64,000 bases of DNA from an uncultured Eubacteriales bacterium. GTDB taxonomy: Bacteria > Acidobacteriota > Aminicenantia > Aminicenantales > UBA8522. A model generated the notes under the pieces. The model had not been told where the DNA came from, made no database searches, and saw nothing but the letters and a program-made list of their open reading frames with translations. Within the stretch, counting starts at the first letter, position 1, and the number at the start of each line of letters is the position of its first letter. The position numbers were made by a program, and so were the translations under genes. The stretch covers positions 20,501 through 84,500 of the forward strand of contig CAZLFV010000002.1 of NCBI GenBank assembly GCA_964558915.1, read 5' to 3'. Positions 5,861 through 36,063 of the stretch are shown here, in pieces.

Positions 5861-5864
5861 GGCG

Positions 5865-7127: not shown

Positions 7128-7153
7128 CCAAAAAATGAACGATAAACACCGGT

Positions 7154-7678: not shown

Positions 7679-7718
7679 TCCTCCCGGCAAATCATGGATT
7701 ATTCCACAAAGAAGCCCC

Positions 7719-7747
7719 ATTTTAGAAAACTCCCAAAGGATTGTCAA
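7719..7747 (-). promoter_or_regulatory. Sigma70-type promoter P3 for the distal cytochrome module
   Basis: Minus strand reads TTGACA (7747-7742), a 17-nt spacer, then TAAAAT (7724-7719). It lies in the AT-rich 123-nt gap between the nonahaem and tetrahaem genes. Confidence 0.6.
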
Positions 7748-7801
7748 TATTTTTTACTATAAAAACGATAATTTTTATAAAAATGATAGAAATAATAGGG
7801 T

Positions 7802-9085: not shown

Positions 9086-9102
9086 AATTTCTTGGTTTTC
9101 TT

Positions 9103-10176
9103 TTATGTCTTGGGCGCAAGGTAGGTGAGCGCCGTCATGACGATAATGTAAAGCAAAACGATGCCTCCTGCGATCGAAAAACCCGGGCTCTTCACCTCCC
9201 GGCCAGACCTCCGGTCAAGATAAGGAACCAACATCCAGAGCAATCCACCCAGCATGAATCCAAGTATGGCCAGGACCTCGCCTTCCAGGGAGAAAATATG
9301 AGCGGGGATGATTTTAAGAGTCGTGAACATGAATGTAAAATACCATTCTGGCTTGATACCGGCCGGCGTCGGGGCAAAAGGGTCTGCTTTTTGACCTATT
9401 TCCCAGGGAAAAAAAACACAGATGACCCCGATAGCGGTCAGGACGAGAAGCCAGCCCAGCGCATCTTTAAGGATGAAGGCGGGGAAAAAAGAAATTTCCT
9501 TTGTCTCGGAGACCCCGATGGGCTTGCTCATCCCCAGGACCTGGACCAGGAAGATATGGATCCCTATGAGGACAAGCGCAACAGCCGGCAGGATAGCGAC
9601 ATGAAGCCAGAAGAATCGGCTCAGTGTCGCGCCGGAAACCTCCGGGCCTCCGAGGATAAACGTCTTGAGGGCTTTGCCGACGACAGGGACAGCTCCGGCG
9701 ATGTCCGTTCCTACCCGGGTGGCGAAAAACGAGAGCTCGTTCCAGGGGAGAAGATAGCCGCTGAACCCGAAAGCCAGGAAGAAGAGAAGCAGGAAGAACC
9801 CGCTGACCCAAGTGAGATCCCTCGGCGGTCGGTAGGCTTTCAGGAAGAATGTGCTGAACATGTGGATGAATATGACTCCGATCAGGATGTTGGCCGTCCA
9901 GCTGTGGACAGAGCGGATGAGCCACCCGAATTTGACCTGACTCATGATAAACACGATGCTTTCATGAGCCGCGTCGACCGAGGGAGTGTAATATAGCAGG
10001 AGGAGAATTCCCGTAATGACCTGCACGGAAAAAAGAAAAAGGCACAGCCCGCCAAAGTAATACCAGAAGGAATACTTATGCTCTGGGACTTTTTTTTTCT
10101 TGCCGAATTCAAGCAGGGCGGAAAATTGGAATCTGGATTCGAGGTAGTCGGTGGCCTTCCTAATGAGTTGGCTCAT
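9103..10176 (-). CDS. Cytochrome b of a Rieske/cyt b complex (b6 plus subunit IV fused type)
   Basis: Colinear with cytochrome b6: FGWLIRSVHSWTANILIGVIFIHMF and RFFWLHVAILPAVALVLIGIHIF supply the four haem-b His ligands. The Qo-site PEWY motif is present in the C-terminal part (IKPEWYFTFMF). Start set at MSQLIRK (10176), just after the Rieske stop. Confidence 0.9.
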   Translation of the reverse strand: MSQLIRKATDYLESRFQFSALLEFGKKKKVPEHKYSFWYYFGGLCLFLFSVQVITGILLLLYYTPSVDAAHESIVFIMSQVKFGWLIRSVHSWTANILIGVIFIHMFSTFFLKAYRPPRDLTWVSGFFLLLFFLAFGFSGYLLPWNELSFFATRVGTDIAGAVPVVGKALKTFILGGPEVSGATLSRFFWLHVAILPAVALVLIGIHIFLVQVLGMSKPIGVSETKEISFFPAFILKDALGWLLVLTAIGVICVFFPWEIGQKADPFAPTPAGIKPEWYFTFMFTTLKIIPAHIFSLEGEVLAILGFMLGGLLWMLVPYLDRRSGREVKSPGFSIAGGIVLLYIIVMTALTYLAPKT

Positions 10177-10177
10177 T

Positions 10178-10603
10178 CTAAGATTTCTTCGAGACAAAAA
10201 TATCGCCGCTCCCTACCTCGATTTCGTAAGCCTCCAAGGGGCGCGGCGGCGGACCGGATATGACATTCCCGGCTAGGTCAAACCGGCCGTTGTGACAGGG
10301 GCAATAGAGGGTGCCGGTGTCGCTTTCGTAGCTCACGGTGCAGGTCAGGTGAGTGCACACGGCGGAAAAAGCCCGGAGCTGACCGTCGGCAGTATTGATT
10401 AACAGCGCGGGAGAGGACCCGAATTTGAACAGCTTGGCGGAGTTGGGCGCCAGCTCACCCACTTTGGCGGCGGCGATTTTCCTGGCCACGGCTTCAGCCT
10501 GGCGCGGAGGAATGAGATACCGGACGATGGGATAAAGAAGGGAAGTCGCAGTCCCCAGGAGAGACCCTCCGAGAAAGAAATTGACGAACTTTCGCCTCTT
10601 CAT
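10178..10603 (-). CDS. Rieske 2Fe-2S iron-sulfur subunit
   Basis: The two Rieske boxes CTHLTC and CPCHNGRF are present. N-terminal MKRRKFVNFF is twin-arginine-like and is followed by a TM helix. Confidence 0.9.
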   Translation of the reverse strand: MKRRKFVNFFLGGSLLGTATSLLYPIVRYLIPPRQAEAVARKIAAAKVGELAPNSAKLFKFGSSPALLINTADGQLRAFSAVCTHLTCTVSYESDTGTLYCPCHNGRFDLAGNVISGPPPRPLEAYEIEVGSGDIFVSKKS

Positions 10604-10607
10604 TTTC

Positions 10608-12593
10608 CTATTTTTCTCCGATAGATTTTACCTTTTGTTTGAGTTTTGTCAACAGCCCTTCAATGAACTGAGAGTTGTGGACCGAGAGGCTGCCGTCATT
10701 TTCGAGCATCCTGAGCATCTCCGCAATTTCAGCCAGTTTGGCCCGGTCGTACTCACCCAGGTCGAGCCTTTTCTTTTCCTCCATGCCGGCGAGGAGCGAT
10801 TCCCGCTGCTTTTTATAGGCATCCTGCCATTTTTCAAATATCTTCTTGTAGCTCTCCTCATGGCAATTCGAGCAGGTGGAGCTTCCGGCCGGACGCAATT
10901 GTCCTTTTTCCTGGCTGTGGCAATCAGCGCAAGCGACGTTGGCCTCGGCCATCATGTCCTTGGGGACTTCCCAAGCGGCCAGAGTCCCCCCCGCATAGAG
11001 TGTCTTTTGCAGGACATGGCACCTTCCACAGTCTGTCTTGGGATCCTGGTGGTGGCAAGCGGCGCACTGTTTTTTGGAGCCGATGAACTCCCCGTGTTTT
11101 TTCGCGTTGGAATGGCAGGTCGAACACTCCATTTTCTGGCTGACGACATGCGTTTTATGGGGAAAGGAAAGCCCGTAGAGCTGGCTGTTGATCTCTTCGA
11201 TCCCGGCATGGCACTGGGAGCATTGCGAGGGAATGTCTTGTGTTTTGGGCAGGAATCTTTCGGGCGTGTAAGAGGAACCGATGAGCTGGAGCGCTTCCTC
11301 CATATAGGCAAAGGCAGCCTGAAGCAGTTCCTGCGAGTAGGCCATGTTATGGACGCTCTTGCCTCTCTCAACGACGTCGATATTGAAAGCCGCATCGTCC
11401 AGCAACGACCCAGCCTTTTCCCGATGGGGGACCTTGCTCATTCTTACTTCCTGGGAAGACCTTTGATAGATCCTCCTGATCTGGTTCAGCCTTTTCTCAG
11501 TCGAGACCTGCCAGTTCCGGAGGATTCGGGCGAATCCTGTTCCGTGACAGGATTCGCAGGCCTGCTCCTTGGAGATCATGGTCTCGCTCTTGACCAGCTT
11601 GCCGCCTGCTTCCTCATGAAACATGTGGCAGCCCTTGCAGCTCAGTCCTTTTTCCAGCATGACATTGGGCAGCGCGTGGGCAACGCCTTTTCCGCCTTCC
11701 CCTGTGTAGAGGATCTTTTGGGCCTGATGAAACCCCGTATGGCAGGTCCGGCAATCGGCGATTGTTTCGATATCTTTAACGATTTTGTGCTGGATCTGGA
11801 GATGGCATTGGTTGCACTCAATCTTATGGGCTGTGATATGAGTCGAATGGATCAAATCTGTATCAGAATATTGATCCAGCCTTTCTTTCTCAAAATGGCA
11901 CTTGTAGCAGTTTTCGCGAGGGACGGCTCCGTCGCCGACAATGACCTGACTGTGGCACTTATCGCAGTTGAAGCCCTTTTCAAATACGAGAGTGTGGTCG
12001 AACCGGGATCCCTTTTCTGATATCAAATCCTGCTGGATGTGGCAGTGGGAGCACTCGCCGATCTGGGGGTAGTGTTCGCTCTTTTTAAAATGGCAGATAA
12101 AACATGTCGATTCTGTGACAGTTATGTGCTCCCCTTGAACGATCTGGGAATGGCAGCTTGTGCAGCGGAGCTTCTTTCCTCTTTTCAAATCCTCGAAGTG
12201 GATCTTGTGGTCGAAGACGACCGTCTTGAATTCCACCCGGCCCTGGAGAAGCCTGGTGTCGTGGCAGCCCGGACGGAGGCAGCTTTCATCCGGAATCTCT
12301 GCCCAGGGTCTGGACTTGAGGTAAAGCTTGCTCCAATACCGGCCCAGCTGCATCAGCCCCTCCACTTTTGCCCTGAAGAAAGATTTCAACCCTGGAGGAT
12401 AATGGCAGACGCTGCACTGGATGGTGCCGTGGGAAGAGGTTTTCCAGCTCTGATAGAAGGGCTTCATGTAGTGGCAGGTCGAGCAGAACCGGGATTGGGA
12501 CGTGATTTCTGCCGCGGCGATGAAAAGAAGCAGGAAAAACGCAAGACCACAAAGGAATATCAGACTCCTTTTCTTGGTGATCCGTATCTTCAT
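10608..12593 (-). CDS. 18-haem c-type cytochrome with N-terminal NapC/NirT-type membrane anchor
   Basis: N-terminal TM helix followed by SRFCSTCHYMKPFYQSWKTSSH, a NapC/NirT-like signature. 17 CxxCH plus CLRPGCH (CX4CH, nt 12261-12281) in 661 aa. Confidence 0.85.
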   Translation of the reverse strand: MKIRITKKRSLIFLCGLAFFLLLFIAAAEITSQSRFCSTCHYMKPFYQSWKTSSHGTIQCSVCHYPPGLKSFFRAKVEGLMQLGRYWSKLYLKSRPWAEIPDESCLRPGCHDTRLLQGRVEFKTVVFDHKIHFEDLKRGKKLRCTSCHSQIVQGEHITVTESTCFICHFKKSEHYPQIGECSHCHIQQDLISEKGSRFDHTLVFEKGFNCDKCHSQVIVGDGAVPRENCYKCHFEKERLDQYSDTDLIHSTHITAHKIECNQCHLQIQHKIVKDIETIADCRTCHTGFHQAQKILYTGEGGKGVAHALPNVMLEKGLSCKGCHMFHEEAGGKLVKSETMISKEQACESCHGTGFARILRNWQVSTEKRLNQIRRIYQRSSQEVRMSKVPHREKAGSLLDDAAFNIDVVERGKSVHNMAYSQELLQAAFAYMEEALQLIGSSYTPERFLPKTQDIPSQCSQCHAGIEEINSQLYGLSFPHKTHVVSQKMECSTCHSNAKKHGEFIGSKKQCAACHHQDPKTDCGRCHVLQKTLYAGGTLAAWEVPKDMMAEANVACADCHSQEKGQLRPAGSSTCSNCHEESYKKIFEKWQDAYKKQRESLLAGMEEKKRLDLGEYDRAKLAEIAEMLRMLENDGSLSVHNSQFIEGLLTKLKQKVKSIGEK

Positions 12594-12638
12594 TCAATAT
12601 CGCTTTCTTCGATGGTCCGGTTGAGTCTGCGGCTGCTC

Positions 12639-13457
12639 TTAAGCATAGCTATGCAACCCCGCCAGCAGGTAATTCACGCCAAAGTAGGTGAACAGGGCGG
12701 CGAGAAATCCGATGATGGCGATGGCGGCCGACCGCCGGCCCTTCCAGCCCATGACGATCCGGGTGTGGAGATACAGGGCAAAGACAAACCAAGTAATCAG
12801 GCTCCAGACCTCTTTCGGGTCCCAGCTCCAATAACTTCCCCAAGCCTTGTAGGCCCAAACCATGCCGAAGACAAGGCCGCCTAGGGTGAAGAGAGGAAAA
12901 CCGATGGCAATAGAGCGGTAGCTGATCGAGTCCAGTTTTTCCGCTGTGAGCGCTGATTTCGCCGCTTTCCCTCTTCGTTCCTTGGCGTCGGCCGCAAGGT
13001 ACATGATGCTCGTAATGAAAGCGATGGCAAAAAAGGCTTCGCCGATTAGGGTAACAGAGACATGTAGCCAGAGCCAGTAACTCTGCAGCGCCGGAACTAG
13101 AGGAGTCGTCTCTTTCGGCATGAGAGGCGAAGACGCCAAAGCCATAAGGGCGATGACAATGAGCATCAGGTAGCCGGCCGGTCTTTTGACCTTGTATTTT
13201 GCCTCAATAATAACAAAGGCCAGGATGGACGCCCAGGCCAGAAAAGAGAGGGACTCGTACATGTTGGTGAAAGGCGCATGGCCGCTTTCCACAGTCCTCA
13301 AAATGAGGGCCAGCGTATGGACGAGGAGGCCGGTCAAAGCCACAGAGAAACCAATCCTGGCCCTGTTTTCCTTATTGGAGAAAAGATGGGAGAAATAGAA
13401 GGCAGCCGCTAAAGCATAAAGGATGAAGGCGAGCAGAAAAAAAGTGGATTCGGTCAT
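12639..13457 (-). CDS. ccsA: System II cytochrome c biogenesis protein CcsA/ResC (haem export and ligation)
   Basis: Polytopic membrane protein with the WWD-type motif WGSYWSWDPKEVWSLITW. 4-nt overlap with resB. Confidence 0.9.
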   Translation of the reverse strand: MTESTFFLLAFILYALAAAFYFSHLFSNKENRARIGFSVALTGLLVHTLALILRTVESGHAPFTNMYESLSFLAWASILAFVIIEAKYKVKRPAGYLMLIVIALMALASSPLMPKETTPLVPALQSYWLWLHVSVTLIGEAFFAIAFITSIMYLAADAKERRGKAAKSALTAEKLDSISYRSIAIGFPLFTLGGLVFGMVWAYKAWGSYWSWDPKEVWSLITWFVFALYLHTRIVMGWKGRRSAAIAIIGFLAALFTYFGVNYLLAGLHSYA

Positions 13458-14809
13458 TTGCGTATCCTGAGAGAATTGATGATGCTTTCAAATTCCGTTT
13501 GAAAGGCCTCCCGGGCTTTGACGGAAATTCCGCCGGCCGTGACCTCTGTCTTCCCCTGGCTGTCCTCTAAAATAATCTTTAACTCTCGTGGCGGCCAGTA
13601 AAAGGCCAGGCCAAGCCCCACCATCAGCAGGACGCAGCCGACCCAGATGAGCGAGACGCCCGGGTCCTTGGCCACGTGAATAACTGAGTAGCTCGGCGCC
13701 CGGACATCTTTGAGTTCGAGAGTGATATCTGCTTCCTTGGCGCCGGAGTGGAGACGCGAAAAATCCGGGAACCTGGCGAAAATCCAGCCGGAGAACACCT
13801 TTTCTGTTCCTATCCAGCCTTCGATGAAGGCCGCTGGATTATTGGGCTCGAGCGAGCGGCTGGCCGGCTGGTTTTTTTCGTCCAGGACGAAATCAGGGAT
13901 GAACCGGACGGCGTTGAGCACAAGGGATTCACCGTTCAGGGCCGTTTTCTCGCCGATTTTCAGCCAGGCCTTTTTAAGGTAACTTGGGTCCGGCTTTTTC
14001 TTCACCCAGACCTCGAGCGACGGATGGTCCCAATCCGAACCGTAGCCGCTTTGATAAAACACGTAGCCTCGATGATTGAGGGGAGAGTTGACTTCGACTG
14101 TTTTTTGGAAGAGGGGCTTTCCGGCCTCAGTCACAGTGAGGAGGCTTTTCCAATCCTTGACGCTTCCGTTAGGATAGTATTCCGTCACGAATTGATCCAG
14201 CCGGACAGTAAAATCCGCCCCCGGGACTGAAAGAGTCCGGCCTTCGGTAAAGGTGAGGTCCTGGCGGAAACTGCCGAGCCCGCTGGCAATTCCGCCGGCC
14301 AAGATCACCAGGAGGCCCAAGTGGACGACATCAGACCCGAACCAGCCGAGGACCCTCTTCCGGGCGGTCAGGCAAGATCTATTATCGGTTCTGACTTCCC
14401 TGAGCCGGTAGCGCCGGCGGCGGAGTTCCTTCTTGACCATTTCTCTGGTTTCGGCGGCGGACAAACCGACTTTGAACTTGTCCTTGATTTTCAAAGCGAG
14501 AATGTTCTTGGGTTCGGTCTCCAACTTGGTCTGGAAGGTCCGCCGGAATTTGGGAAAGAGCCTTTCGAGCGTGCAGACGATGATATTCACGGCAAAGAGC
14601 GCAAGCAGGCCGACAAACCAGAAGGACTGATACAGCCTGGTGAACTGCAGGCGCTCAAGAAGCGCCCCGAGCTGGCCATAGCGGACAAGATATTCCTGGG
14701 TGCTTCTTCCCTGGGGGATTAGCGTTCCGACGATCGAGGCGCAGATGAGGATAATCAGTAGGGTGATGGCCACCCGGACCGAAGTGAAAAAATTGAGCAG
14801 GGCTTTCAT
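13454..14809 (-). CDS. resB: System II cytochrome c biogenesis protein ResB/Ccs1
   Basis: 451 aa. N-terminal MKALLNFFTSVRVAITLLIILICASIVGTLIPQG is a typical ResB start. Large soluble loop and C-terminal TM helix; coupled to ccsA. Confidence 0.85.
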   Translation of the reverse strand: MKALLNFFTSVRVAITLLIILICASIVGTLIPQGRSTQEYLVRYGQLGALLERLQFTRLYQSFWFVGLLALFAVNIIVCTLERLFPKFRRTFQTKLETEPKNILALKIKDKFKVGLSAAETREMVKKELRRRRYRLREVRTDNRSCLTARKRVLGWFGSDVVHLGLLVILAGGIASGLGSFRQDLTFTEGRTLSVPGADFTVRLDQFVTEYYPNGSVKDWKSLLTVTEAGKPLFQKTVEVNSPLNHRGYVFYQSGYGSDWDHPSLEVWVKKKPDPSYLKKAWLKIGEKTALNGESLVLNAVRFIPDFVLDEKNQPASRSLEPNNPAAFIEGWIGTEKVFSGWIFARFPDFSRLHSGAKEADITLELKDVRAPSYSVIHVAKDPGVSLIWVGCVLLMVGLGLAFYWPPRELKIILEDSQGKTEVTAGGISVKAREAFQTEFESIINSLRIRK

Positions 14810-14879
14810 GCCGCATCCTTGAGTCGTCTGTTTAATAACTACTAATTATATCGGAATACTCAATTTTTGGCCATCCTCT

Positions 14880-16115
14880 CTAGGTGCGGCCTTTACGCAT
14901 CTCCGCTGCGAGAGTCTGGATCTCTGTGAGCGACCGCCTCATTTCGCTCCAACCGTACCAGAGAGCGTAGTCCGGATTGGCATGAAAAGTCCCCTGAAAA
15001 GAGCGCATCCGGTGTTCGAGAAACATGACGAAGAGCTTCTGCTCCACTTCGGTTGGCGCGTCATGGAAAGTCAGAAGGTCGGGAAACCGATAGGCGTAGC
15101 TTGCCGGTTTCGGCAGGATGCCGTCCTGGTAAAGGGAGGCGACTTCTCGGATGGCCTCGGCCATCAGATGGTCGACTTCTTTGATCATCTCATCGCCTTT
15201 TTTGAGCTCTCCTTTGGCAAAATTCGCGCTATGGCAACTGGTGCAAATCCCGATCATCTTGTCCCGTTCTTTCTGCCAGGCTTCCTGGGTCAGACGGGCG
15301 ACGTCGGCCGCCTTGACGACATCAAGCCTTGGCGTGGGGTTACCGCTCGGGTCCAGAACGCCGAGAGCCTGAAGAATTGTGGCTCTGTCTGCAGCCCATT
15401 GCCTGTCCTCAGGCATCGGCAGCCGCACGGCCAGAAATCCCCAGGCAGTCCGGACTTCGTGGTTTTTCTCCTGCATATGGCAGGTCTGGCAGGAGGGCGC
15501 GGCAGTTGATTCGGGGAGGATTTTATTTTGTTTCAAGAGAAAGCGGACGCCGTGCTTGGAAGCGGAGTACATCTCCCATTGAGGATGATCGAAGCCCATA
15601 TGGCAGGTCTGGCAGGCTTGGGGCTGCCGGGCTTCGGTGACGGAAAAAATATGCCGCGTATGGCAGGCGTCGCAAGAGGCCCGGCCGAACCCTGCGCCGG
15701 CCTTATCGAGCTCCGCTATTTCCGCCTCTGTTTTCAGCCCGATCTTGTGGCATCCGCCACAGCCCTTCATTCCTTCCATCATTGCCACGGGCTGAGCGTG
15801 CGCTGTCGGCATGGCTTTCATCGCCGCCCAGGCCAGGGCGTGCTTGCCCCGCTTGAACTGGTTCACCTGGTCTTCGTGACAGGCAGCGCATGTTTCTGGC
15901 GTAGGGATCCCGGCCTTGGCAAAGTCCAAGGCGGTCTTGTGTCCTTCGCCGTGGCAAATAGAACAGCCCACCTCATTTTTGCTGTGCTCGCTCAGCAGCC
16001 AATCGCTGACGATGTAGGGTGTGGCCTTTTTATGACACTCCATACATTCCTGACCAAGGAGCGCCGGCGCAACAAGAAAACTCAAGAAAATCCCCACGAC
16101 GATTCTTCGCTTCAT
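14880..16115 (-). CDS. Octahaem cytochrome c of the hydroxylamine oxidoreductase (HAO) family
   Basis: 8 CxxCH: CMECH, CSICH, CAACH, CGGCH, CDACH, CQTCH, CQTCH, CTSCH. HAO-family spacing and landmarks are present: CDACHTRH, CQTCHMGFDHPQWEMYSASKHG, and a C-terminal helical domain after haem 8. Has a signal peptide. Confidence 0.8.
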   Translation of the reverse strand: MKRRIVVGIFLSFLVAPALLGQECMECHKKATPYIVSDWLLSEHSKNEVGCSICHGEGHKTALDFAKAGIPTPETCAACHEDQVNQFKRGKHALAWAAMKAMPTAHAQPVAMMEGMKGCGGCHKIGLKTEAEIAELDKAGAGFGRASCDACHTRHIFSVTEARQPQACQTCHMGFDHPQWEMYSASKHGVRFLLKQNKILPESTAAPSCQTCHMQEKNHEVRTAWGFLAVRLPMPEDRQWAADRATILQALGVLDPSGNPTPRLDVVKAADVARLTQEAWQKERDKMIGICTSCHSANFAKGELKKGDEMIKEVDHLMAEAIREVASLYQDGILPKPASYAYRFPDLLTFHDAPTEVEQKLFVMFLEHRMRSFQGTFHANPDYALWYGWSEMRRSLTEIQTLAAEMRKGRT

Positions 16116-16167
16116 GATGCACCTCCTCGACGGGGATAGAAGCCGCTGCTTGAAATTGGCGGATTAC

Positions 16168-16196
16168 TCTATAGCATCGCCCGCAGGAAAAGTCAA
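16168..16196 (-). promoter_or_regulatory. Sigma70-type promoter P2 for the HAO / maturation / Rieske-cyt b module
   Basis: Minus strand reads TTGACT (16196-16191), a 17-nt spacer, then TATAGA (16173-16168). It lies about 45 nt upstream of a GAGGAGG ribosome-binding site and the ATG at 16115. Confidence 0.5.
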
Positions 16197-16218
16197 AAAA
16201 TTGGCGGTAAGCATCTTC

Positions 16219-16584
16219 ATTTCCGTAAGCATTCTGCTTTAGAATAGGGTCCTGCCACGACTTCCCCGCCAGGGGGAGGAGGCGAGGGATGATGTGGTGA
16301 GAAGTCCGTATGAGCGACGAGCGGGCGTCGCGAGGCATCGAAGATGCCGTGGCGATCTCAGTTTGAGATTGCTTCGCTGTCGCTCGCAATGACAATCTTG
16401 ATTTGCGCAAGCAAATCAGGGGGTTCCAAGGGGGATGGCCCCTTTGGTCGCAGAGCAAAGCTCGAGAAGGGGAGGCAGGGAGCGCAGCGAACGTTGGAAG
16501 GGGGAACGCGGAGCGTTCTCCCTCCAAGAAACCAATGTGGGAAATCGCAGCTTGACTTCGAACCACATCTCCCGAGCCTCGTCG
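16219..16584. repeat. MITE-like structured interspersed repeat, copy A (left arm, core and a ~140-bp internal insertion; right arm missing)
   Basis: 16272-16396 matches 35829-35953 with 4 mismatches in 125 nt. 16537-16584 matches 35964-36011. 16397-16536 is present only in this copy. The left arm 16219-16262 is about 81% identical to the reverse complement of the right arm of copy B. Confidence 0.8.
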
Positions 16585-16638
16585 GGGCCCCCCGCCCCGT
16601 CGCCCTCTGCTTATCATCTCTAATTACAGAAATGGATC

Positions 16639-18978
16639 TTACCGCCAGGTGTACTTGGCCATGTTGCCGCCCAGACTTCCGATGGAGTCCGCGAGCAATT
16701 GAGCGATATAGAGGGGGTTGTGGATGAACCCGCAGGGTTCCTTCTTGCTCATCTGAAAATTATAGGCGGCCTTGAGCATGGCCGCGCTGAATCCGTACCC
16801 GTTGCTGGAAGTGAGCTCAGCAGGGTCTGCAATTCCGTCCCCGTCGGTATCTTTAAAGAAATATGGATAACTTATTTCGCTATAGACAATCGGGGCGCCG
16901 ATACTCCTCCCGTAGGCCTGAAGCTGCGTGTAAAGCGCGTCCTCGAGGCCCTTGATCTCCGCCTGCAGGGATTCGTTCTTGTTCCCATCTCCGTCGTAGT
17001 CAGGAGTCTGGGCCGGCCGGATCCCTTCGAACTCGAACTGGCTGGGGTCAGCGCCTGGATGGGGCTGGGCGATGTCCTGGCCATGGCAGGGCGCGCAATC
17101 GGCGGGGTTGGGTGCTTGGACGTTGTGGAATAAGGCGTCCGAATCATCGTGCTTCCTGTTGAAGCTCTTGGTTCCCATGTGACACTCGACGCAATTCGTA
17201 AAAAGCCCGTTGTGGTTGGTGAATATATTGCGGCCGGCATAGGTTTTTCCGCTGAATTCGTATCCGCCGCGGACTTCGGAACCGAAGAAGGAAGCCGCCG
17301 CTGCATAATAATGGATATTGGTGAAGCTGTACGGTCCCGGGCCGCCGGCAATCGCCCTGTCAACCGAGGACTTCGAAGCTCTTCCCTGGTGGCAGTTGAG
17401 GCACAGGTTGGAGCTGTCGGCCAGGTTCACGCTCACTCCGGAGGGAAATGTCACCGGACCGGCTGGCCTCGTCTGGGGCGGCACAATATGGCAGGTCAGG
17501 CAGAGCAGGCCGTTGGAAATATCCATGGCCTTGTCAATGGTGCCGTTATCGAGCAGGTAGGGGAGGCCTTGGGCGCTGTGGCATTTGGCGCAAGTTGACG
17601 GAACCTCTCCCTCCCCGTCCCAATGCCTCCAGGCCTCGGCTGATCCGTCGAAATGCCCTTCATCAGTCCGGACAAGTCCGCGGCCGGAGCCGGGTGCATA
17701 TTGCAGATAGGCATCCGCGGCCGATTCCAAGGAGCTTCGGGCAAGAATCTCATCATTCGGCAAAGGAAAGGTTCGCTCTTGGCCGCCCGCCTTAGACCGG
17801 CGCCCCGGCCGCAAGGGCCGCGTAAGACTTGGTTTCGAGACCGGAGTCTGGGTAGCGATTTCGGCACCTCTTGAAGTATTAAGGTCCTCGATTGAATCGT
17901 AAAGGAGTTCGATGATGTATTTTCCGTTATGAACATACTGGCATGGGTCTTTAATGCAAACCTGGAGGTTATAAGCGGCCTTGAGCAGGCGGGCGGTGAA
18001 GGAGCTATACCCGTTGCTTGACTCTGCCTCATTGGAGTCGACAACTCCGTTGTCGTTTTTATCATTGAAGAAGTAGGGATACGCGATTTCGTCGTAGGCG
18101 ATCGGCTTCCCGACGACATCTCGTGCGTAAGCGCGCATCGCGTTGTACAGAATCTCCCGGATTGTCTCGATCTCGTAGAAAATCCCCTCGGTGATATTCC
18201 CGTCCCCGTCGTAGTCAACCCAGGAGCCGTAATAGCGGATGTTTTTTGGGTTTTTGACCCCAGTGTGACAGGTGTTGCAGGCGTCCAGGTCAACCTCAAG
18301 AGAGTGCGGATCATGACAAACCTGACAGGCGTTGTAGCCGGGAATATGGGCGAACCGGGAGTCGTAAGATTTTTCGGCGTATTGATATCCTCCCCGGACG
18401 ACGGTCCCGAGCTGAGTAGCGGCAGCGGCATAGTAGTGGACATTGACAAACCTCAGCCTGGAACTCGGTTCATCGTCTGAGGTGACGCCTGACCCAGCGA
18501 TCGCAGTGTCGACAGATTTTGTCGAGGCCCTTCCCTGGTGACATTCCATGCAGAGCGTTTCTGGGCCGAGGCCTTCGATTTTCACTCCCGAAGGAAAGAT
18601 TGCATAGGTGCGGTTATGGACGACGCCTTTATCAGGGTCGGAATGGCAGGCGGCACACTCGACCGTTGTGCCCAGAGGAGCGGCATTGTCGACCGTATCC
18701 GGTGCAGTTCCGTCGGCGCCCAGATAATCCCTCAACCCGGGCGTGCTGTGGCACTTGGCGCAGGTTGTCGGGACCTGGCCTTCTTCATCCCAGTGCTTGA
18801 AGGCTTCGTCCCCTTTTTGAGCATGCGCCGAAGTAGACCACAGTCTTTGCGCGTGATCTCTTTTTGACTGAGGTTTTATGACCTCGTGGCTGGCCGTTCT
18901 TGCCAGGAGAAACGAACAGATCGCAATGACAGCCAAAAGGCCTAAAAGGTATGGTCTCCTGAACATCGTCTCCTCCAA
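16639..18978 (-). CDS. Decahaem c-type cytochrome built from two tandem pentahaem modules (putative cell-surface component)
   Basis: Module 1 has CAKCH, CAACH, CMECH, CQVCH, CNTCH. Module 2 has CAKCH, CLTCH, CLNCH, CVECH, CAPCH. The two ~350-aa halves are clearly colinear (HWDxEGxVPxTCAKCHS, FPSGV, CxxCHQGRAS, HYYAAAA, RGGY, YDGDGN, YPYFF, NGY, LKAAYN). N-terminal signal peptide. Confidence 0.85.
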   Translation of the reverse strand: MEETMFRRPYLLGLLAVIAICSFLLARTASHEVIKPQSKRDHAQRLWSTSAHAQKGDEAFKHWDEEGQVPTTCAKCHSTPGLRDYLGADGTAPDTVDNAAPLGTTVECAACHSDPDKGVVHNRTYAIFPSGVKIEGLGPETLCMECHQGRASTKSVDTAIAGSGVTSDDEPSSRLRFVNVHYYAAAATQLGTVVRGGYQYAEKSYDSRFAHIPGYNACQVCHDPHSLEVDLDACNTCHTGVKNPKNIRYYGSWVDYDGDGNITEGIFYEIETIREILYNAMRAYARDVVGKPIAYDEIAYPYFFNDKNDNGVVDSNEAESSNGYSSFTARLLKAAYNLQVCIKDPCQYVHNGKYIIELLYDSIEDLNTSRGAEIATQTPVSKPSLTRPLRPGRRSKAGGQERTFPLPNDEILARSSLESAADAYLQYAPGSGRGLVRTDEGHFDGSAEAWRHWDGEGEVPSTCAKCHSAQGLPYLLDNGTIDKAMDISNGLLCLTCHIVPPQTRPAGPVTFPSGVSVNLADSSNLCLNCHQGRASKSSVDRAIAGGPGPYSFTNIHYYAAAASFFGSEVRGGYEFSGKTYAGRNIFTNHNGLFTNCVECHMGTKSFNRKHDDSDALFHNVQAPNPADCAPCHGQDIAQPHPGADPSQFEFEGIRPAQTPDYDGDGNKNESLQAEIKGLEDALYTQLQAYGRSIGAPIVYSEISYPYFFKDTDGDGIADPAELTSSNGYGFSAAMLKAAYNFQMSKKEPCGFIHNPLYIAQLLADSIGSLGGNMAKYTWR

Positions 18979-18984
18979 TTCCTC

Positions 18985-20850
18985 TTAGTTCCAGCGGTAG
19001 CCAAAGGAGAACTCGAAGATGTTGGCCGCATAATTGTTGGATCCGGACAGTTTTTCGAGGTAGTCGACGCATCTGTAGCCGACCTGAGCCATGTAGCCGG
19101 CAGTAAAAGAATACTGGATGTACGCCTTGAGCGTGGCCCGGCGGATTTCCCAGGATCCGGCGTTGGAGAAGTAGTTGGCACAGCCGCCAAAGGTCCAGTT
19201 CTGGTTGAGGTCATATGAGAGCAGCACATCCAGCAGGCTCGATCCCTGCAGGTAAGAGATCGTCCAGAGGAATGACCCGCTAGGCGTGGTCCAATAAGGA
19301 GGAAATTCGACCATCCGGTCGGCCCGGCGTCTGGCCCGAATATAGGCAAACCCTCCGGAAACATTGAACCGGCCGGCGTGGTACCCGGCGCGCAGGCTGA
19401 ATTGGTTTCCGGACGCCTTCCAGGTATTTTCATCGAATACATCTGTCTCGGAGTTGTTCCAGATGTAGGACCCGGAGAAGCTCCAAGCCTTGACTTGATA
19501 TTTTGCCGTGATCCGGAGCCTATCAAAGCAGCTCGGGGAAATGAGGGCGAAGGGATTCTCGACCTGGCTGTGCTCGTAGTCAAGGGTTAGCTTAAGTACT
19601 CGCGAGATATCCCATCTGAGATTGCCGAAGGCGCCATTGCTTGCCGTGTCGAATTCATATTCGGCCGTTTCCAGGTTTTTGAGAGTCCGTTCCTCAAAAT
19701 GATAGCCGAGGGTTAAGGCCAAGTAGGGAGTGAAGGAGTACTGAACGCCTGCGTTGAATCCCAGAGTTTCATATCCAAAATCCTCTGTGTCGCCGCCTTG
19801 GTCGCCAGTCATAGCGCCGGTTTGGTCAAAGTTGTGAAAACGGAAGGCGGCCATAACCGTGAGCTTGCTTGACAAGGTGTATGTGGCATCCAACTCGTAG
19901 AGCTGGATGTTACGGGAGAAGTCTCCCTTGCCGGTATAGCTGTAGGCGAAATTTCTATTCAGGTAGCTGACCCCGAGTGCTCGCTCGGAATAATCAAGGT
20001 CCATGTCGAGCGCCGATAATTGGACCGATGCAGTCAAGAAGAATCTGTCCGTCGGCCTCGCATTGAACCAGAAAGAGCTGGTTACGGATTTCAAATCGTA
20101 GGGCTGATTCAGGAAAAAATAATAGAGTGAGGCGGGGTTCTCGGCCTCCGGCCCGCCGTCCACGTACCCGGGCAGGAAGAGGCTGTTCTGGTTCTTATAC
20201 TTCAGGAATTTTTCTTCTGCCACAAAGGAATAGCGGTTGAAATGGAGGTTCAAACCGACAGCGATCTCTTTCGACTCCTCCTGGACTGGCTTGTCCATCT
20301 CGAATTCCATCCGGTTGACGTTGAGGCTAGTTGTGCCCGCCCCCTTTTTAGTAAACCGGTCGAAGCTCAGATAAAAGTCGGCTTGCTTGGCCAGGGAGAT
20401 TCTGGCCAAGCCGCTATCCCTGACCCGGTCAAAATCGAAACGGTGAAGGTCATAAAGCCCGCCATCGCCCATATTCAGGTCATTATAGAAATAGTTCGCT
20501 TTTCTCCTGTCGTACTGCAATAGATACTTGCCATACTTCTGGAGCGATGCGGAGATAGTTTCGAAGGGATCTCCACCCAGGTTGAACATCCGGAGGTTCA
20601 GCCGGTCAAAAACTTTTTTGAGGTCGTTCTGCGGAGAATAGACCAGGTTGAAACTATAAAGCCGGGCGCCGCCGGAGAGATTGTAATCTTCTTTATAGTT
20701 GGAGACAGCGCCGGGCCCGCTGAGGTTTACGGAGCGAAACCCAAGGAGGAAATCGCCCGAAAAGTCACTGTTTTGGGCTCCCAGAGAGAGAGACAGGAAG
20801 AACGCCAGAACAACACCCAGGAATGCCGTGATTGTCTTTCTGCTGTTCAT
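18985..20850 (-). CDS. Outer-membrane beta-barrel protein, putative MtrB/PioB-like porin of a porin-cytochrome complex
   Basis: Signal peptide MNSRKTITAFLGVVLAFFLSLSLGAQ, preceded by AGGAGA. About 600 aa of alternating amphipathic beta-strand pattern. The terminal FEFSFGYRWN is an OMP-like aromatic-rich C-terminus. Flanked by decahaem genes on both sides. Confidence 0.65.
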   Translation of the reverse strand: MNSRKTITAFLGVVLAFFLSLSLGAQNSDFSGDFLLGFRSVNLSGPGAVSNYKEDYNLSGGARLYSFNLVYSPQNDLKKVFDRLNLRMFNLGGDPFETISASLQKYGKYLLQYDRRKANYFYNDLNMGDGGLYDLHRFDFDRVRDSGLARISLAKQADFYLSFDRFTKKGAGTTSLNVNRMEFEMDKPVQEESKEIAVGLNLHFNRYSFVAEEKFLKYKNQNSLFLPGYVDGGPEAENPASLYYFFLNQPYDLKSVTSSFWFNARPTDRFFLTASVQLSALDMDLDYSERALGVSYLNRNFAYSYTGKGDFSRNIQLYELDATYTLSSKLTVMAAFRFHNFDQTGAMTGDQGGDTEDFGYETLGFNAGVQYSFTPYLALTLGYHFEERTLKNLETAEYEFDTASNGAFGNLRWDISRVLKLTLDYEHSQVENPFALISPSCFDRLRITAKYQVKAWSFSGSYIWNNSETDVFDENTWKASGNQFSLRAGYHAGRFNVSGGFAYIRARRRADRMVEFPPYWTTPSGSFLWTISYLQGSSLLDVLLSYDLNQNWTFGGCANYFSNAGSWEIRRATLKAYIQYSFTAGYMAQVGYRCVDYLEKLSGSNNYAANIFEFSFGYRWN

Positions 20851-20860
20851 CACTGTTCTC

Positions 20861-21756
20861 CTATTTGAGGAATTTCTTGTCCAGGTTCGAACCATGAATC
20901 GAGGAATGACAGGTCACGCAATTGGTCCCCTGAGAAGTGAAACTGCCGTGCCAGGCCGGCGCCTCAGAGTGACAGCTGAAGCACAGGTCGGCGATGTTCT
21001 GCTCAGTCAACATATGGCGGTTGGGCGACCCATGGGCCTGGTGGCAGATATTGCAGCCCTCGACCCGGGAGGCCTGGTGTTCATGGAGAAAAGGACCCCC
21101 TTTGTCGGTGTGGCAGCGGATGCACTCCTCTTGTTTGAACCCGGCCAGTCGTATCCGGAGAGCCGGTTCATGCGGATTGTGGCAGGAAGTACAGGTTACA
21201 ATTCCTTCCTGAAGCCGGTGCCGCCTATTCAGCTGGAACTCGGCGAAGACGTCCTCGTGGCAGCGCGCGCAATCTGTGTTTTTCTGAGTTTTGAGAAGCG
21301 GAGAAGCAGCAACCTCGCCGTGAATGTGGTGGCAGGTGGTGCAATCGAGCGAGGCTTTCCCATGCGGGCTGTTGGTGAACCGGGGGCTGTCTTTTTCATG
21401 ACAGGTCAGGCATTTCTGCGTTTTTGCGCTGGCCGGGTTGGAGGCGGCAAAAGAGAATACGCCCGCCTTGCCTCCTTCGTCCACGTGTTGTTCCGCGCTC
21501 CCGTGGCAGGCCGTGCAGGTCGGTTCGGTCAAGCCGGCATGGGGCCGGGAGGAGAATCTCTTGACCACTTCTTCGTGACAAGTGCCGCACGTTTGCGTGT
21601 CTTTCGCCTGGGCTGTCGGCTTGGCCGCGACCCCAACGCGACGACGGCGGCGAATGCGGCCATGAGGCCGATCGTCGAGAGCGGGGCAGTCCTTAATTTT
21701 CTTTTCCTTTGTGCTGACAACTCCAACCTGCTTGAGAAACTCTTCGTCCATCTCAT
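20861..21756 (-). CDS. MtrA/DmsE-like periplasmic decahaem c-type cytochrome, apparently frameshifted near the 5' end
   Basis: 10 CxxCH in about 240 aa: CGTCH, CTACH, CLTCH, CTTCH, CARCH, CTSCH, CIRCH, CNICH, CFSCH, CVTCH. The haem frame (ATG 21751) has no hydrophobic leader. The overlapping frame from ATG 21756 encodes KRKLRTAPLSTIGLMAAFAAVVALG. Confidence 0.8.
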
Positions 21757-21799
21757 CTCTTTATTGACTAAACTTATCTATTCTATAAATTCCATAGGT

Positions 21800-21828
21800 T
21801 TTATAATAAATGGCGCGGAAAATGTCAA
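21800..21828 (-). promoter_or_regulatory. Sigma70-type promoter P1 for the porin-cytochrome module
   Basis: Minus strand reads TTGACA (21828-21823), a 17-nt spacer, then TATAAA (21805-21800). It lies about 45 nt upstream of the first ATG. Confidence 0.6.
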
Positions 21829-21918
21829 GAGGAAAAGGATTGTTTTATAGACCGGCAGACCGCCGGACTCAGAACGCAAAAACAGTCTCTTGAGGGAGGA
21901 GAAAGAGACGGTCCGGAA

Positions 21919-22383
21919 TCAGCGTCGAACTCGGGCTTTCTCCTTGCCTTTGGCCTTCTTTTTTCCGCAGACATCCAGGACGTACTGGAGGGTGACCCTT
22001 TCGAAATAGTTTTTCAGGATCTGGCTGGCCTCTTTCCAGATCTCGTAGGCGGCGCAGGTCGGGAGACGGTCGCAAAAATCTTTATCCTCGATGCAGTCGA
22101 CGAGGGCGCAGGACCCTTCCAAGGCTTCCAGAATTTTGCAGAGATTGATCTCCGACGGCTTGCGGGCGAGAGTATAGCCGCCGCCCGCGCCGCGAATGCT
22201 TTTTACGAGCTTGTAGATCTTCAAAGGGATGATGATCTGCTCGAGGTAGCGGAGGGAAATCTCCTCCTCCTCAGCCACGTTTCTCAGGATGACTGCCTTT
22301 GTGCCGCTGGTATAATGGCGGGCGAGGTTTAACATGAGGCGGAGGCCGTATCTTCCCTTGGTGGAGACTTTGATCATGCTCAC
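21919..22383 (-). CDS. Rrf2-family transcriptional regulator with a Cys cluster (probable Fe-S sensor)
   Basis: MIKVSTKGRYGLRLMLNLARHY plus a winged-helix region (ISLRYLEQIIIPL, SIRGAGGGYTLA). Cys cluster CALVDCIEDKDFCDRLPTC. Lys-rich tail. Confidence 0.85.
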   Translation of the reverse strand: MSMIKVSTKGRYGLRLMLNLARHYTSGTKAVILRNVAEEEEISLRYLEQIIIPLKIYKLVKSIRGAGGGYTLARKPSEINLCKILEALEGSCALVDCIEDKDFCDRLPTCAAYEIWKEASQILKNYFERVTLQYVLDVCGKKKAKGKEKARVRR

Positions 22384-22555
22384 CTCCTTAATAACAAGTT
22401 CGCAGCGATGATGATAAAAACCCTGCGCAACACAAGTATTTTATTTGAATTTCTCAGTTATTTCAACATAATTTTATAGATTCTATAAGAATTATAAGAA
22501 AATATAACCCCGGCCCACAACGGAGCCCCGTCGTTCGTCGGAGCACCGCTTCGGC

Positions 22556-22584
22556 TTGACACTCCAAGCCGGGATTTGTATTCT
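22556..22584 (+). promoter_or_regulatory. Candidate promoter for the iorAB-acd operon
   Basis: TTGACA (22556-22561), a 17-nt spacer, then TATTCT (22579-22584). The -10 box is weak. Confidence 0.35.
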
Positions 22585-22646
22585 TTAGACTCATCCCAAT
22601 TCCCTGATAGAAGACAATGTGGGTGAGTCGGTCATAAGGACAAATC

Positions 22647-24245
22647 ATGATAACAGAAATCTTGCTCGGCGATGAGGCCGTTGCCCTGGCCGCCGTACAC
22701 GCCGGCCTCACCGCGGCCTATTCGTATCCGGGAACTCCGGCGACGGAAATTATGGAGTACTTGATCAAAGCCGCGTCCAAGTCCAAGGGGCTCAAAGCTT
22801 CCTGGTCGGTGAACGAAAAAGTCGCCTACGAGGAAGCTCTGGGTGTCTCGTTTGCCGGAAAACGGGCGCTGGTCTCGATGAAACACGTGGGATTAAACGT
22901 GGCGGCGGACCCATTCATGAACTCCGCCCTCACGGGGACGAACGGCGGCCTGGCCGTTGTCATCGCCGATGACCCCAGCATGCACAGCTCCCAGAACGAG
23001 CAGGACAGCCGCTACTATGCCCAGTTCGCCCTGATCTTTTGTTTCGAGCCCTCAAATCACCAGGAAGCCTATGATATGACCCGCCGCGCCTTTGACCTTT
23101 CTGAAGAAATGGGGATTCCGGTAATGATCAGGCTCGTCACCCGGCTCTCTCACAGCCGTTCGAGCGTCGTGCCCCGTCCCGCCAGGGAAGAGAATCCGCT
23201 TCATCATGGCGCCTGGACAGACTGGACGCTCCTTCCAGTCAATGCCAGACGACGCTTCAAAATGCTGCTTGAGAAGCAGGCCGAGCTTGTCAAGTTATCA
23301 GAAGGATCAGATTTCAATTCTCTGGCGGTCAACGAGGACGACCGTTCAGTCGGGGTGATCGCTTCGGGAATTGCCTACAATTATGTCAGGGAAAACCTCA
23401 GAGATATCCGGAGAGGCCCATCCCTTCTCAAAATCGGCACTTATCCGCTTCCGCAAAAGCTCGTGGAAAATCTCGTGCGGCATGTGGAGACAGTCCTTGT
23501 CGTCGAGGAAGGCTATCCCTTCATCGAGAAAACCTTGCGCGGGACATTTGGCCTGCCCGGGAAAACAATCAAAGGAAAGCTGAGCGGCCATCTTCCGCTT
23601 CAAGGAGAACTTTCTCCCGAAATCGTTCGAGCCGCGCTCGGGCTCAAACCGCTGGATCGGCATAAAGTTGCCGAGTTCGAACTTGCCGCTCGGCCCCCCC
23701 AGCTCTGCCAGGGCTGTCCGCATGCCGATACTTTTCATGCCCTGAACAAGGTTCTCCAGGACTACCCTGGCGCCAACGTTTTCAGCGATATCGGCTGCTA
23801 CACGCTCGGAGCTTTTCCCCCGTACAGTGCTGTCCAGACCTGCGTGTGCATGGGCGCGAGCGTCGGCATGGCCAAGGGCGGCGCCGAGGCGGGGATCTTC
23901 CCTTCTGTGGCCGTGATCGGTGATTCGACGTTCGGACATTCCGGGCTGACGCCCCTGCTTGAGGCGGCGGCCGCCAACACAAACATGATTGTGATCATCC
24001 TGGACAACAGCACAGTGGCTATGACCGGAGGTCAGCCGAGCTACGCCTCTGGAGGAAGCCTTCTCAAGATGATCGAAGGCCTCGGAGTGCCCAAAGAGCA
24101 CATCCGGGTTATCAAGCCATTGCCCAAGAACCTAGAGAATAACGCTAGAGTGATTCGAGAAGAGATCGATCATAACGGGATTTCTGTCATCGTGGCCGTG
24201 CGGGAATGCCTCGTGGAGGCAAGGAAAAAGAGGAGGAGCGGATAG
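22647..24245 (+). CDS. iorA: Indolepyruvate:ferredoxin oxidoreductase alpha subunit (TPP enzyme)
   Basis: N-terminus LLGDEAVALAAVHAGLTAAYSYPGTPATEIMEYL. CQGCPH motif and TPP-binding region GDSTFGHSG. Followed directly by iorB. No CxxCxxCxxxCP ferredoxin motif is present in this ORF. Confidence 0.8.
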   Translation: MITEILLGDEAVALAAVHAGLTAAYSYPGTPATEIMEYLIKAASKSKGLKASWSVNEKVAYEEALGVSFAGKRALVSMKHVGLNVAADPFMNSALTGTNGGLAVVIADDPSMHSSQNEQDSRYYAQFALIFCFEPSNHQEAYDMTRRAFDLSEEMGIPVMIRLVTRLSHSRSSVVPRPAREENPLHHGAWTDWTLLPVNARRRFKMLLEKQAELVKLSEGSDFNSLAVNEDDRSVGVIASGIAYNYVRENLRDIRRGPSLLKIGTYPLPQKLVENLVRHVETVLVVEEGYPFIEKTLRGTFGLPGKTIKGKLSGHLPLQGELSPEIVRAALGLKPLDRHKVAEFELAARPPQLCQGCPHADTFHALNKVLQDYPGANVFSDIGCYTLGAFPPYSAVQTCVCMGASVGMAKGGAEAGIFPSVAVIGDSTFGHSGLTPLLEAAAANTNMIVIILDNSTVAMTGGQPSYASGGSLLKMIEGLGVPKEHIRVIKPLPKNLENNARVIREEIDHNGISVIVAVRECLVEARKKRRSG

Positions 24246-35774: not shown

Positions 35775-36063
35775 CCATTTCCGTGATACTGAGGCGGTGG
35801 TCTAAAGAGGGTGATGCCGCGTTAAGCCGGGGGATGAGGCGAGGGAGAATGTGGTGAGAAGTCCGTATGAGCGACGAGCGGGCGTCGCGAGGCATCGAAG
35901 ATGCCGTGGCGATCTCAGTTTAAGATTGCTTCGCTGTCGCTCGCAATGACAATTCTCCTCGCTGGGGAAATCGCAGCGTGACTTCGAGCCACATCTCCCG
36001 AGCCTCGTCGGGGAGTAAGCCGCGGCAGGCCCCTATTCCAGAACAAAATGCTTACGGAAACGG
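35775..36063. repeat. MITE-like structured interspersed repeat, copy B (compact form with imperfect terminal inverted repeats)
   Basis: The core matches copy A (see 16219-16584). Left arm CCATTTCCGT (from 35775) and right arm ACGGAAACGG (ending 36063) are inverted. No ORF of credible length lies inside. Confidence 0.75.

Follow-up and report, generated by a model that had tools for sequence, protein, structure and literature searches.

Can a bacterium of the Aminicenantes lineage pass electrons across its outer membrane, and if so, through which proteins? The question is raised by three co-directional genes, here called A, B and C, on the minus strand of a 64,000-nucleotide (nt) stretch of DNA (the window; contig CAZLFV010000002.1, positions 20,501 to 84,500), where they were delineated from the list of open reading frames (ORFs) and from counts of the haem-binding motif CxxCH. 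The closest relatives of the proteins carry the names Candidatus Aminicenantes or Aminicenantales, and the strain has also been assembled in at least four other public samples. A first reading of the letters alone (the original prediction) had described a porin–cytochrome module with an unusual third protein. We conclude that A, B and C probably encode an MtrAB-type porin–cytochrome conduit whose partner comes from a lineage other than that of MtrC, with C probably located on the outer face. The three genes are as follows.

20861 to 21751, minus strand: gene A, MtrA/DmsE-like decahaem cytochrome; ORF of 296 amino acids as read, with 10 CxxCH motifs.
18985 to 20850 (or 20895), minus strand: gene B, MtrB-like outer-membrane β-barrel; 621 amino acids from MNSRK, no CxxCH motif.
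16639 to 18966, minus strand: gene C, decahaem cytochrome; 775 amino acids from an ATG, in an ORF that extends to 18978; 10 CxxCH motifs arranged 5+5.

The MtrAB-like core

The product of A aligned with the DmsE-family decahaem model TIGR03508 over profile positions 2–257 of 258 (E 1.4e-52, 178.8 bits; curated cut-off 192.2) and with the solved MtrA chain 6r2q_A over residues 67–290 (E 3e-25). Judged by these matches, A is an MtrA/DmsE homologue with ten haems, as first proposed. The predicted mature size of about 240 residues is right for the family, whose chain has 247 amino acids after cleavage between AQA and KD, and wrong for the ORF as written, the leader of which is out of frame (discussed below).

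Searches of Pfam and NCBIfam with B returned weak generic barrel matches and a local match to GSU2204 (E 5.7e-10, 38.6 bits; cut-off 350). The family model PF11854 (MtrB_PioB) was matched by 17 of 50 homologues of B (best E 1.6e-12), and two homologues are named MtrB/PioB by NCBI. The sequence of B found no matches among solved structures, and a profile of the B family also missed MtrB in the PDB. An AlphaFold2 model of B was compared with solved structures by fold. Built from 50 homologues, it has a predicted local distance difference test score (pLDDT) of 89.8 and a predicted template modelling score (pTM) of 0.81, and is all-β with about 26–28 strands. The strands assigned by DSSP, about 27 in number, start at residue 30, right after the signal peptide (MNSRKTITAFLGVVLAFFLSLSLGAQ); because the barrel begins there, B has no plug domain. 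The top Foldseek match in the PDB was MtrB (6r2q_B; E 6.9e-17, template modelling (TM) score 0.69/0.66), at 13% sequence identity in the structural alignment, and the next best were 22-strand TonB-dependent receptors at E ~1e-8 or worse. On this model B is a plug-less MtrB-type barrel, with a fold that matches MtrB far better than other solved barrels. The original assignment of B to the MtrB type is thereby upheld: what was found is a predicted MtrB fold without a plug, and not an unrelated or plugged porin. In one related metagenome-assembled genome (MAG) of the Aminicenantes type (L011:1782-3799), the barrel gene is split into two ORFs, possibly by a frameshift or an assembly error.

The three genes are closely packed. 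A and B are 10 nt apart, and the AGGAG ribosome-binding site of the barrel gene overlaps the TAG stop of A, both as originally read. The start of C needs correction. In database copies it is the ATG at 18966, preceded by GGAGGA, which is most likely the start used here to judge from the sequence; because C starts at this ATG and not at the upstream TTG, the B–C gap is 18 nt and the protein has 775 residues, where 6 nt and 779 residues had been given. Both B and C thus have a Shine–Dalgarno sequence ahead of them at tight spacing (10 nt, 18 nt). In relatives, a clean intrinsic terminator lies 3′ of C and is followed by a separate TTGACT/TATAGA promoter for the next gene, and for these two reasons A–B–C is taken to be a transcription unit of its own.

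Gene C, a tandem pentahaem cytochrome

That C is a duplicated pentahaem protein was part of the original prediction and is borne out by its two halves, which are 40% identical over 346 amino acids (E 8e-73) and which both contain the DYDGDG, YPYFF, NGY and LKAAYN blocks. The units span residues ~40–365 and ~430–775 and are joined by a disordered linker (368–429); the CxxCH motifs lie at residues 69, 104, 139, 214 and 230 and at 459, 489, 522, 592 and 624. Each half has a single DYDGDG loop and, in addition, a canonical EF-hand-type loop of 12 residues (DKNDNGVVDSNE, DTDGDGIADPAE), and the EF-hand-type loops are placed at residues 251, 302, 656 and 706.

Conservation of histidines in C was judged over 70 close relatives and 40 more diverse ones. 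Outside the motifs, H48, H177, H207, H221 and H346 of unit 1 and H438, H552, H585, H614 and H749 of unit 2 are invariant or at least 90% conserved. With five conserved extra histidines per pentahaem unit, the ligands suffice for all haems of C to be bis-histidine (six-coordinate), and because they do, C looks, on sequence, like an electron carrier and not an enzyme. The leader of C is a plain cleavable signal of the general secretory (Sec) type. It had been described as having a non-canonical lipobox; it has no lipobox at all, and the leader cysteine, at residue 17, is unique to this strain (the relative with 82% identity has serine).

The AlphaFold2 model of C (pLDDT 80.5, pTM 0.71) consists of two units and contains isolated three-residue strands only. 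Three long helices follow haem 5 in each unit (262–285, 325–339 and 343–364 in unit 1; 667–688, 728–742 and 751–764 in unit 2). The top Foldseek match was OcwA (6i5b; E 1.2e-3, probability 1.00, 335 aligned columns, TM score 0.34, 18% identity), and entries of the NrfA family followed at E>2. OcwA of Thermincola is a cell-surface terminal reductase of a Gram-positive bacterium; it reduces nitrite and hydroxylamine, and is built from a globular haem domain and a C-terminal three-helix bundle reminiscent of NrfA (PMC6703420). The units of C are predicted to share this OcwA/NrfA layout of a haem-binding region and then a three-helix bundle.

C is not a member of the OmcA/MtrC family. The window protein did not match TIGR03507 (OmcA/MtrC) at E≤0.1; none of the 19 PDB matches that Foldseek gave at E≤10 was MtrC, OmcA, MtrF or UndA; and the β-barrel domains I and III, which alternate with pentahaem domains II and IV in the four-domain OmcA/MtrC build, were not found in the predicted model. 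TIGR03507 was matched at E≤0.01 by 4 of 40 relatives of C (best E 1.1e-9). The model PF22113 (MtrC/MtrF pentahaem) gave 29.5–29.6 bits with C, against a cut-off of 30 and only at profile positions 76–168 of 176, and was matched at E≤0.01 by 28 of the 40 relatives (best 1.8e-12). The original placement of C outside OmcA/MtrC stands for the family model, the structural matches and the barrel domains, and has to be qualified for a weak local similarity to PF22113. Nor could C be assigned clearly to any known family of soluble cytochromes. Among the 40 relatives, NrfB was touched by 26 and PF02335 by one, and searches of solved structures with the sequence or profile of C gave chance-level matches only, plus, with the profile, NrfA around haems 4 and 5 (E 0.11). 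Our reading is that the haem-binding part of C shares a generic pentahaem-module ancestry and that the whole unit is laid out like NrfA and OcwA.

Given this resemblance, C could instead belong to the NrfA/OcwA lineage as a catalytic enzyme, for instance a nitrite, hydroxylamine or sulphur oxyanion reductase. Besides the structural matches to OcwA and NrfA family members, the activity of OcwA towards nitrite and hydroxylamine (PMC6703420) and the faint NrfA match around haems 4 and 5 would agree with it. However, ten of the ten motifs in C are CxxCH and no CxxCK is present, the extra histidines conserved in each unit number exactly five, as do its haems, PF02335 reached only a single relative, and a reductase of soluble substrates would need no dedicated wire across the outer membrane. 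We regard an enzymatic role as very improbable and retain the electron carrier.

C also differs from both of the cytochromes with which it is most naturally compared. Unlike MtrC, it has three-helix bundles and EF-hand-type loops in place of β-barrel domains I and III, and it lacks a lipobox, a TIGR03507 match and any structural match to MtrC, OmcA, MtrF or UndA. OcwA of Thermincola potens (6I5B) has nine haems (4+5), two of them with open coordination, and belongs to a monoderm host with no porin, whereas C is a tandem of two pentahaem units, is linked to MtrAB, and has histidines enough for all-bis-histidine coordination. The idea that C itself threads the barrel was considered and rejected as improbable on composition: C has about one haem per 77 residues and helical globular domains, and A has one haem per 25.

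Distribution, location of C and electron flow

One genome per species was scanned with an alignment of C, which yielded 460 relatives; 80 loci were kept, and their ORFs were searched with profiles of A, B and C. Two types of locus were distinguished.

Aminicenantes type, 59 loci: one C homologue per locus; lipobox in 0 of 51.
Chloroflexota type, 21 loci (Anaerolineales, Ardenticatenaceae, Promineifilum and others): 22 C homologues at 42–45% identity; lipobox in 21 of 22.

A, B and C were adjacent and in the same order in all 48 Aminicenantes-type species loci with enough upstream sequence; of the others, four are incomplete contigs that still show B, and seven start at C. A and B were absent from the 21 Chloroflexota-type loci, 15 of which have at least 3 kb of upstream sequence. 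The lipobox of the Chloroflexota proteins is followed by a low-complexity tether of VEVTRVV repeats or Cys-Pro (CPxCP) repeats, and their neighbours are membrane-anchored and other multihaem proteins (7, 8 and 14 haems), with no porin nearby. These Chloroflexota MAG loci (L068–L087; for example L073:6740-9016, and L075:6776-9010 plus 9367-11544) encode C homologues of full length, and some of them carry two tandem copies. The cytochrome of Ardenticatena maritima was considered for membership of the C family and ruled out, the largest cytochrome there having seven haems.

The core occurs on its own as well. Distant homologues of B (29–35% identity, for example in Thermoanaerobaculia) sit in A–B pairs without C. 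In one Thermoanaerobaculia MAG (L088:5252-8442) the A–B pair is followed by a 156-residue monohaem cytochrome (PF13442), and no C-type partner is present; MtoD follows MtoAB in iron oxidisers, and this layout recalls MtoA–MtoB–MtoD. The C family, counted as representative clusters at 50% identity, comprises 1310 clusters at E≤1e-3 and 353 at E≤1e-30, and takes the form of single units of ~360 amino acids, tandems, and fusions of up to 1958 amino acids. Its members are named "hypothetical", "cytochrome c3 family", "multiheme c-type cytochrome" or "polyheme membrane-associated cytochrome C". In one fusion (L092:5837-9691, protein P0229, 1284 amino acids), encoded away from MtrAB-like genes, N-terminal Big_2 Ig-like domains precede a double pentahaem unit.

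C is modular: A–B pairs exist without it, and it exists without A–B. The picture suggested by these distributions is of a conserved MtrAB core to which the Aminicenantes lineage added a partner drawn from a different, extracytoplasmic cytochrome family. A wider reading is that C belongs to a large family of extracytoplasmic haem wires, made of NrfA/OcwA-fold pentahaem units and recruited on two occasions: in monoderm Chloroflexota as a cell-wall cytochrome with a lipid tether, and in Aminicenantes as an extracellular partner of MtrAB. We put this forward tentatively, as a close call that falls a little short of probable.

Our inferences on the threading of A, on C at the outer face, on the direction in which electrons flow and on their acceptor are as follows. 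A (~247 mature residues, 10 haems) would be exported to the periplasm and thread barrel B, as proposed by homology to MtrAB (PMC7198977), and A inside B would carry electrons through the outer membrane as an insulated wire of haems, like MtrAB of Shewanella. C would be exported by its cleavable Sec leader and bind A–B as a dedicated partner, most probably on the outer face, where it would take electrons from the last haem of A and spread them over its ten haems. The electrons would be supplied by the Rieske/cytochrome b, NapC-like and periplasmic multihaem proteins encoded nearby, and delivered to acceptors that are insoluble or large, for example Fe(III)/Mn(IV) oxides or humic matter.

We place C on the outer face with moderate confidence. 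This location is favoured because C is the only cytochrome strictly linked to A–B, because the nearest solved relative, OcwA, is a surface reductase, because relatives of C carry long tethers or Ig-like domains, and because C has EF-hand-type loops. Such loops are associated with extracellular proteins, and Big_2 Ig-like domains are typical of cell-surface proteins.

Several observations weigh against the conduit with an outer C. A scores slightly under the curated cut-off of TIGR03508, and its Sec signal peptide is out of frame both in the window and in L004–L006, three more assemblies of the strain. The window protein B gave no match to PF11854 or TIGR03509 at E≤0.1. The match of the whole C chain to OcwA is weak in both E-value and TM score. 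None of the 51 Aminicenantes-type leaders of C has a lipobox, no recognisable sorting signal was found on C, and no secretion system is encoded within the window. The Chloroflexota comparison speaks only for an extracytoplasmic role, which in a diderm fits the periplasm equally well. In the literature searched, we found no experimental data on any member of this clade.

A periplasmic C would be a wire bridging an inner-membrane quinol-oxidising complex (Rieske/cytochrome b plus a 17-haem NapC-like protein) to the periplasmic end of A, leaving A–B alone to contact the outside, as in MtoAB/PioAB. The plain Sec leader without a lipobox fits such a role, and two units joined by a flexible linker of ~60 residues would suit the spanning of a gap. 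In Chloroflexota the homologues are anchored on the outside of the cytoplasmic membrane, a compartment that corresponds topologically to the periplasm, and relatives have A–B pairs without any large partner. On the other hand, the cluster already encodes several other periplasmic multihaem proteins, and the linkage of C to A–B is strict (48 of 48) where that of the inner-membrane components holds in ~55–70% of loci. OcwA, the closest solved relative, is a cell-surface protein, and the EF-hand-type loops and the Big_2 fusion lean towards the extracellular side. We consider the periplasmic wire unlikely, though a serious rival, and continue with C as the outer partner.

The conduit could also run inward, taking up electrons from Fe(II) minerals, cathodes or syntrophic partners, as has been proposed for MtoAB/PioAB. 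Conduits of the MtrA/MtoA type are reversible, and the sequence is silent on direction; in FeGenie, MtoAB counts as ambiguous (PMC7005843). The genes of a Rieske/cytochrome b complex also lie next to the locus. Against this, the uptake systems known for this type have no large extracellular partner (PMC6344600), and the 2-oxoacid:ferredoxin oxidoreductase and ADP-forming acyl-CoA synthetase encoded nearby would form a fermentative set in need of an electron sink. Uptake seems to us improbable, more so than a periplasmic C, and we favour outward flow.

Among known systems, MtrCAB of Shewanella (6R2Q) is the closest in logic, with a periplasmic wire, a sheath and a partner. In both, a decahaem MtrA-like protein adjoins a large plug-less barrel of MtrB fold, as predicted for B, and the product of the third gene has ten haems and is internally duplicated (5+5). 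The order A–B–C, which the original prediction had set against the C–A–B order of Shewanella, is present as described and is not new, since in Halieaceae mtrC lies immediately downstream of mtrAB (PMC8805035). Exchangeable accessory cytochromes, MtrAB conduits and MtrCAB in Acidobacteriia, as well as the Halieaceae order, are already described in that work. "MtoC" was considered as an alternative surface partner and dropped, as the literature describes it as an inner-membrane quinone oxidoreductase. MtoAB/PioAB and the partner-less MtrAB homologues share the A–B core, and the closest relatives of B outside Aminicenantes (29–35% identity) occur in such pairs; unlike MtoAB/PioAB, which have no large third cytochrome, the Aminicenantes-type loci always carry C.

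The three-part operons of Geobacter, OmaB–OmbB–OmcB and ExtABCD, likewise combine a periplasmic cytochrome, a porin and an outer cytochrome. The Ext clusters have an A–B–C-like order, and the outer cytochromes of these operons are lipoproteins. The Geobacter porin–cytochrome systems are not homologous to MtrAB (PMC6344600), and the NCBIfam model GSU2204 is matched by B only locally. A 2026 preprint reports divergent Mtr-like clusters with MtrA-like and "OwcA-like" cytochromes in peat Terriglobia (10.64898/2026.05.27.727921). These EET1–4 clusters of uncultured peat Acidobacteriota, and of Verrucomicrobiota, resemble the present locus, compared by description only, in their syntenic porin and multihaem genes and their low identity to Mtr/Omc proteins; their hosts are Terriglobia (Terriglobales, UBA7540, Bryobacterales) and not Aminicenantes. 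Our literature search found no description of the Aminicenantes A–B–C module, of the tandem pentahaem family or of the split between Aminicenantes and Chloroflexota.

Aminicenantes (OP8) are common in anoxic sediments and aquifers and are usually described as fermenters; we know of no cultured representative. The A–B–C conduit suggests that they can pass electrons outside the cell, and a conduit strictly conserved in ~50 species-level genomes would let them dump electrons there. If the family reading is right, two abundant subsurface groups called fermenters would respire minerals or humics through a partner that iron-gene screens would probably miss. FeGenie infers iron reduction from MtrC (PMC7005843), and tools of this kind would probably credit such genomes with no more than "MtrAB only". 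The outer partner of MtrAB would be exchangeable, with a module of the nitrite-reductase/OcwA lineage replacing the MtrC lineage, which would be direct comparative evidence for the modular assembly of conduits. C would then be a second, independent design of decahaem partner that could be compared with MtrC by structural and electrochemical work.

The frameshift in gene A and the surroundings of the locus

The remaining features of the locus are listed here.

21631 to 21720, minus strand: segment coding for the signal peptide of A; TTG start at 21720, reading to ...KLRTAPLSTIGLMAAFAAVVALG; out of frame with the haem-binding body.
21797 to 21831, minus strand: promoter-like site 5′ of A; TTGACA, 17 nt, TATAAA, read from the sequence.
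16213 to 16628, minus strand: strain-specific insertion of ~420 nt, a dispersed repeat, from alignment with L001 and L008.
21919 to 22383, minus strand: Rrf2-family transcription regulator, directly upstream of A and co-directional; the syntenic gene in L001/L004 is PF02082 Rrf2.
3847 to 16115, minus strand: downstream respiratory cluster with its own promoter, from ORFs, CxxCH counts and Pfam/NCBIfam.

The 296-residue ORF of A opens with MDEEFLKQVGVVSTKEKKIKDCPALDDRPHGRIRRRRR and lacks a hydrophobic leader, its first ~40 residues being read in the wrong frame; the haem-binding body begins near 21630. In the relative L001/L003, whose C protein is 82% identical, the A gene has a TTG start behind AAGGAGG and encodes a Sec signal, MPAQTKRKGRAAPLSTIALLAAVITVVGLGVAAKPTAQA, cleaved before KD. 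Its sequence GGGCTGGGGGTC (G5) is read in one frame through ...LGVAAKPTAQA and on to KD, where the window and L004–L006 have GCGTTGGGGTC (G4). At the frameshift site the relative reads CTGGGGGTC and the window and L004–L006 read TTGGGGTC, a deletion of 1 nt that turns G5 into G4 at 21631–21634. The G4 run is common to the window and the three further assemblies, each of which has its own sample accession. An in-frame hydrophobic leader and ten CxxCH motifs are present in 51 of the 51 other A sequences checked (48 other species loci and three assemblies of one 82–85% relative). When one G is added, A has 286 amino acids and is 85% identical to A of L001. The Shine–Dalgarno sequence of A (21724–21730) is AAGCAGG in the window copy and AAGGAGG in L004–L006 and L001, a change that may weaken the expression of A in the window copy.

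Because the signal peptide of A is out of frame, the conduit may be crippled in this strain. A would be either a recent pseudogene or dependent on a −1 slip at U-UGG-GGU; such a slip would give back precisely LGVAAK. Taken further, the whole module could be a decaying pseudogene cluster without function in this strain. The deletion shared by all four assemblies, the altered Shine–Dalgarno sequence in the window copy and the replacement of the terminator after C by a repeat insertion could all be signs of such decay. B and C, however, are intact, and the identities to the relative (85% for repaired A, 84% for B and 82% for C) indicate no extra decay of A; a slip would also bring back the wild-type residues LGVAAK, and loss in this strain would not touch the family. 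We regard decay of the module here as a serious possibility, though a doubtful one, and hold to the conduit for the family.

The relatives L001 and L008 carry a terminator, GGCGGCAT...ATGCCGCC followed by T8, at the place where the window strain has the ~420-nt insertion. A second, partial copy of the insertion lies between genes at 35826–36060 of the window (96% over 129 nt), and the element behaves, as far as its sequence goes, like a small dispersed repeat or a miniature inverted-repeat transposable element (MITE). The promoter-like site at 21797–21831 was not listed by the consensus scanner, its second hexamer ending in A. A scan of 15900–22700 against Rfam gave no match at E≤0.1, and so no known RNA element or frameshift signal.

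The downstream cluster (3847–16115) encodes an 8-haem HAO-like protein, ResB, CcsA, a 17-haem NapC/NirT-like protein, a Rieske protein and cytochrome b, and also 9-, 4-, 9- and 11-haem proteins and one membrane protein. ResB and CcsA represent system II cytochrome c maturation. A, C and the cluster between them hold 78 CxxCH motifs, in eight proteins over ~18 kb. Its linkage to the locus is common and not universal: the 8-haem protein was found in 27 of 51 loci, ResB and CcsA in 26 of 37 and the 17-haem protein in 21 of 37. The opposite flank carries the 2-oxoacid:ferredoxin oxidoreductase and the ADP-forming acyl-CoA synthetase.

An Rrf2 homologue lies upstream of A in 25 of the 43 Aminicenantes-type loci with room for it. 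The regulator at 21919–22383 contains a Cys-rich stretch, CALVDCIEDKDFCDRLPTC, which by analogy with known Rrf2 sensors could presumably bind an Fe–S cluster, hinting that iron or redox state controls the operon.

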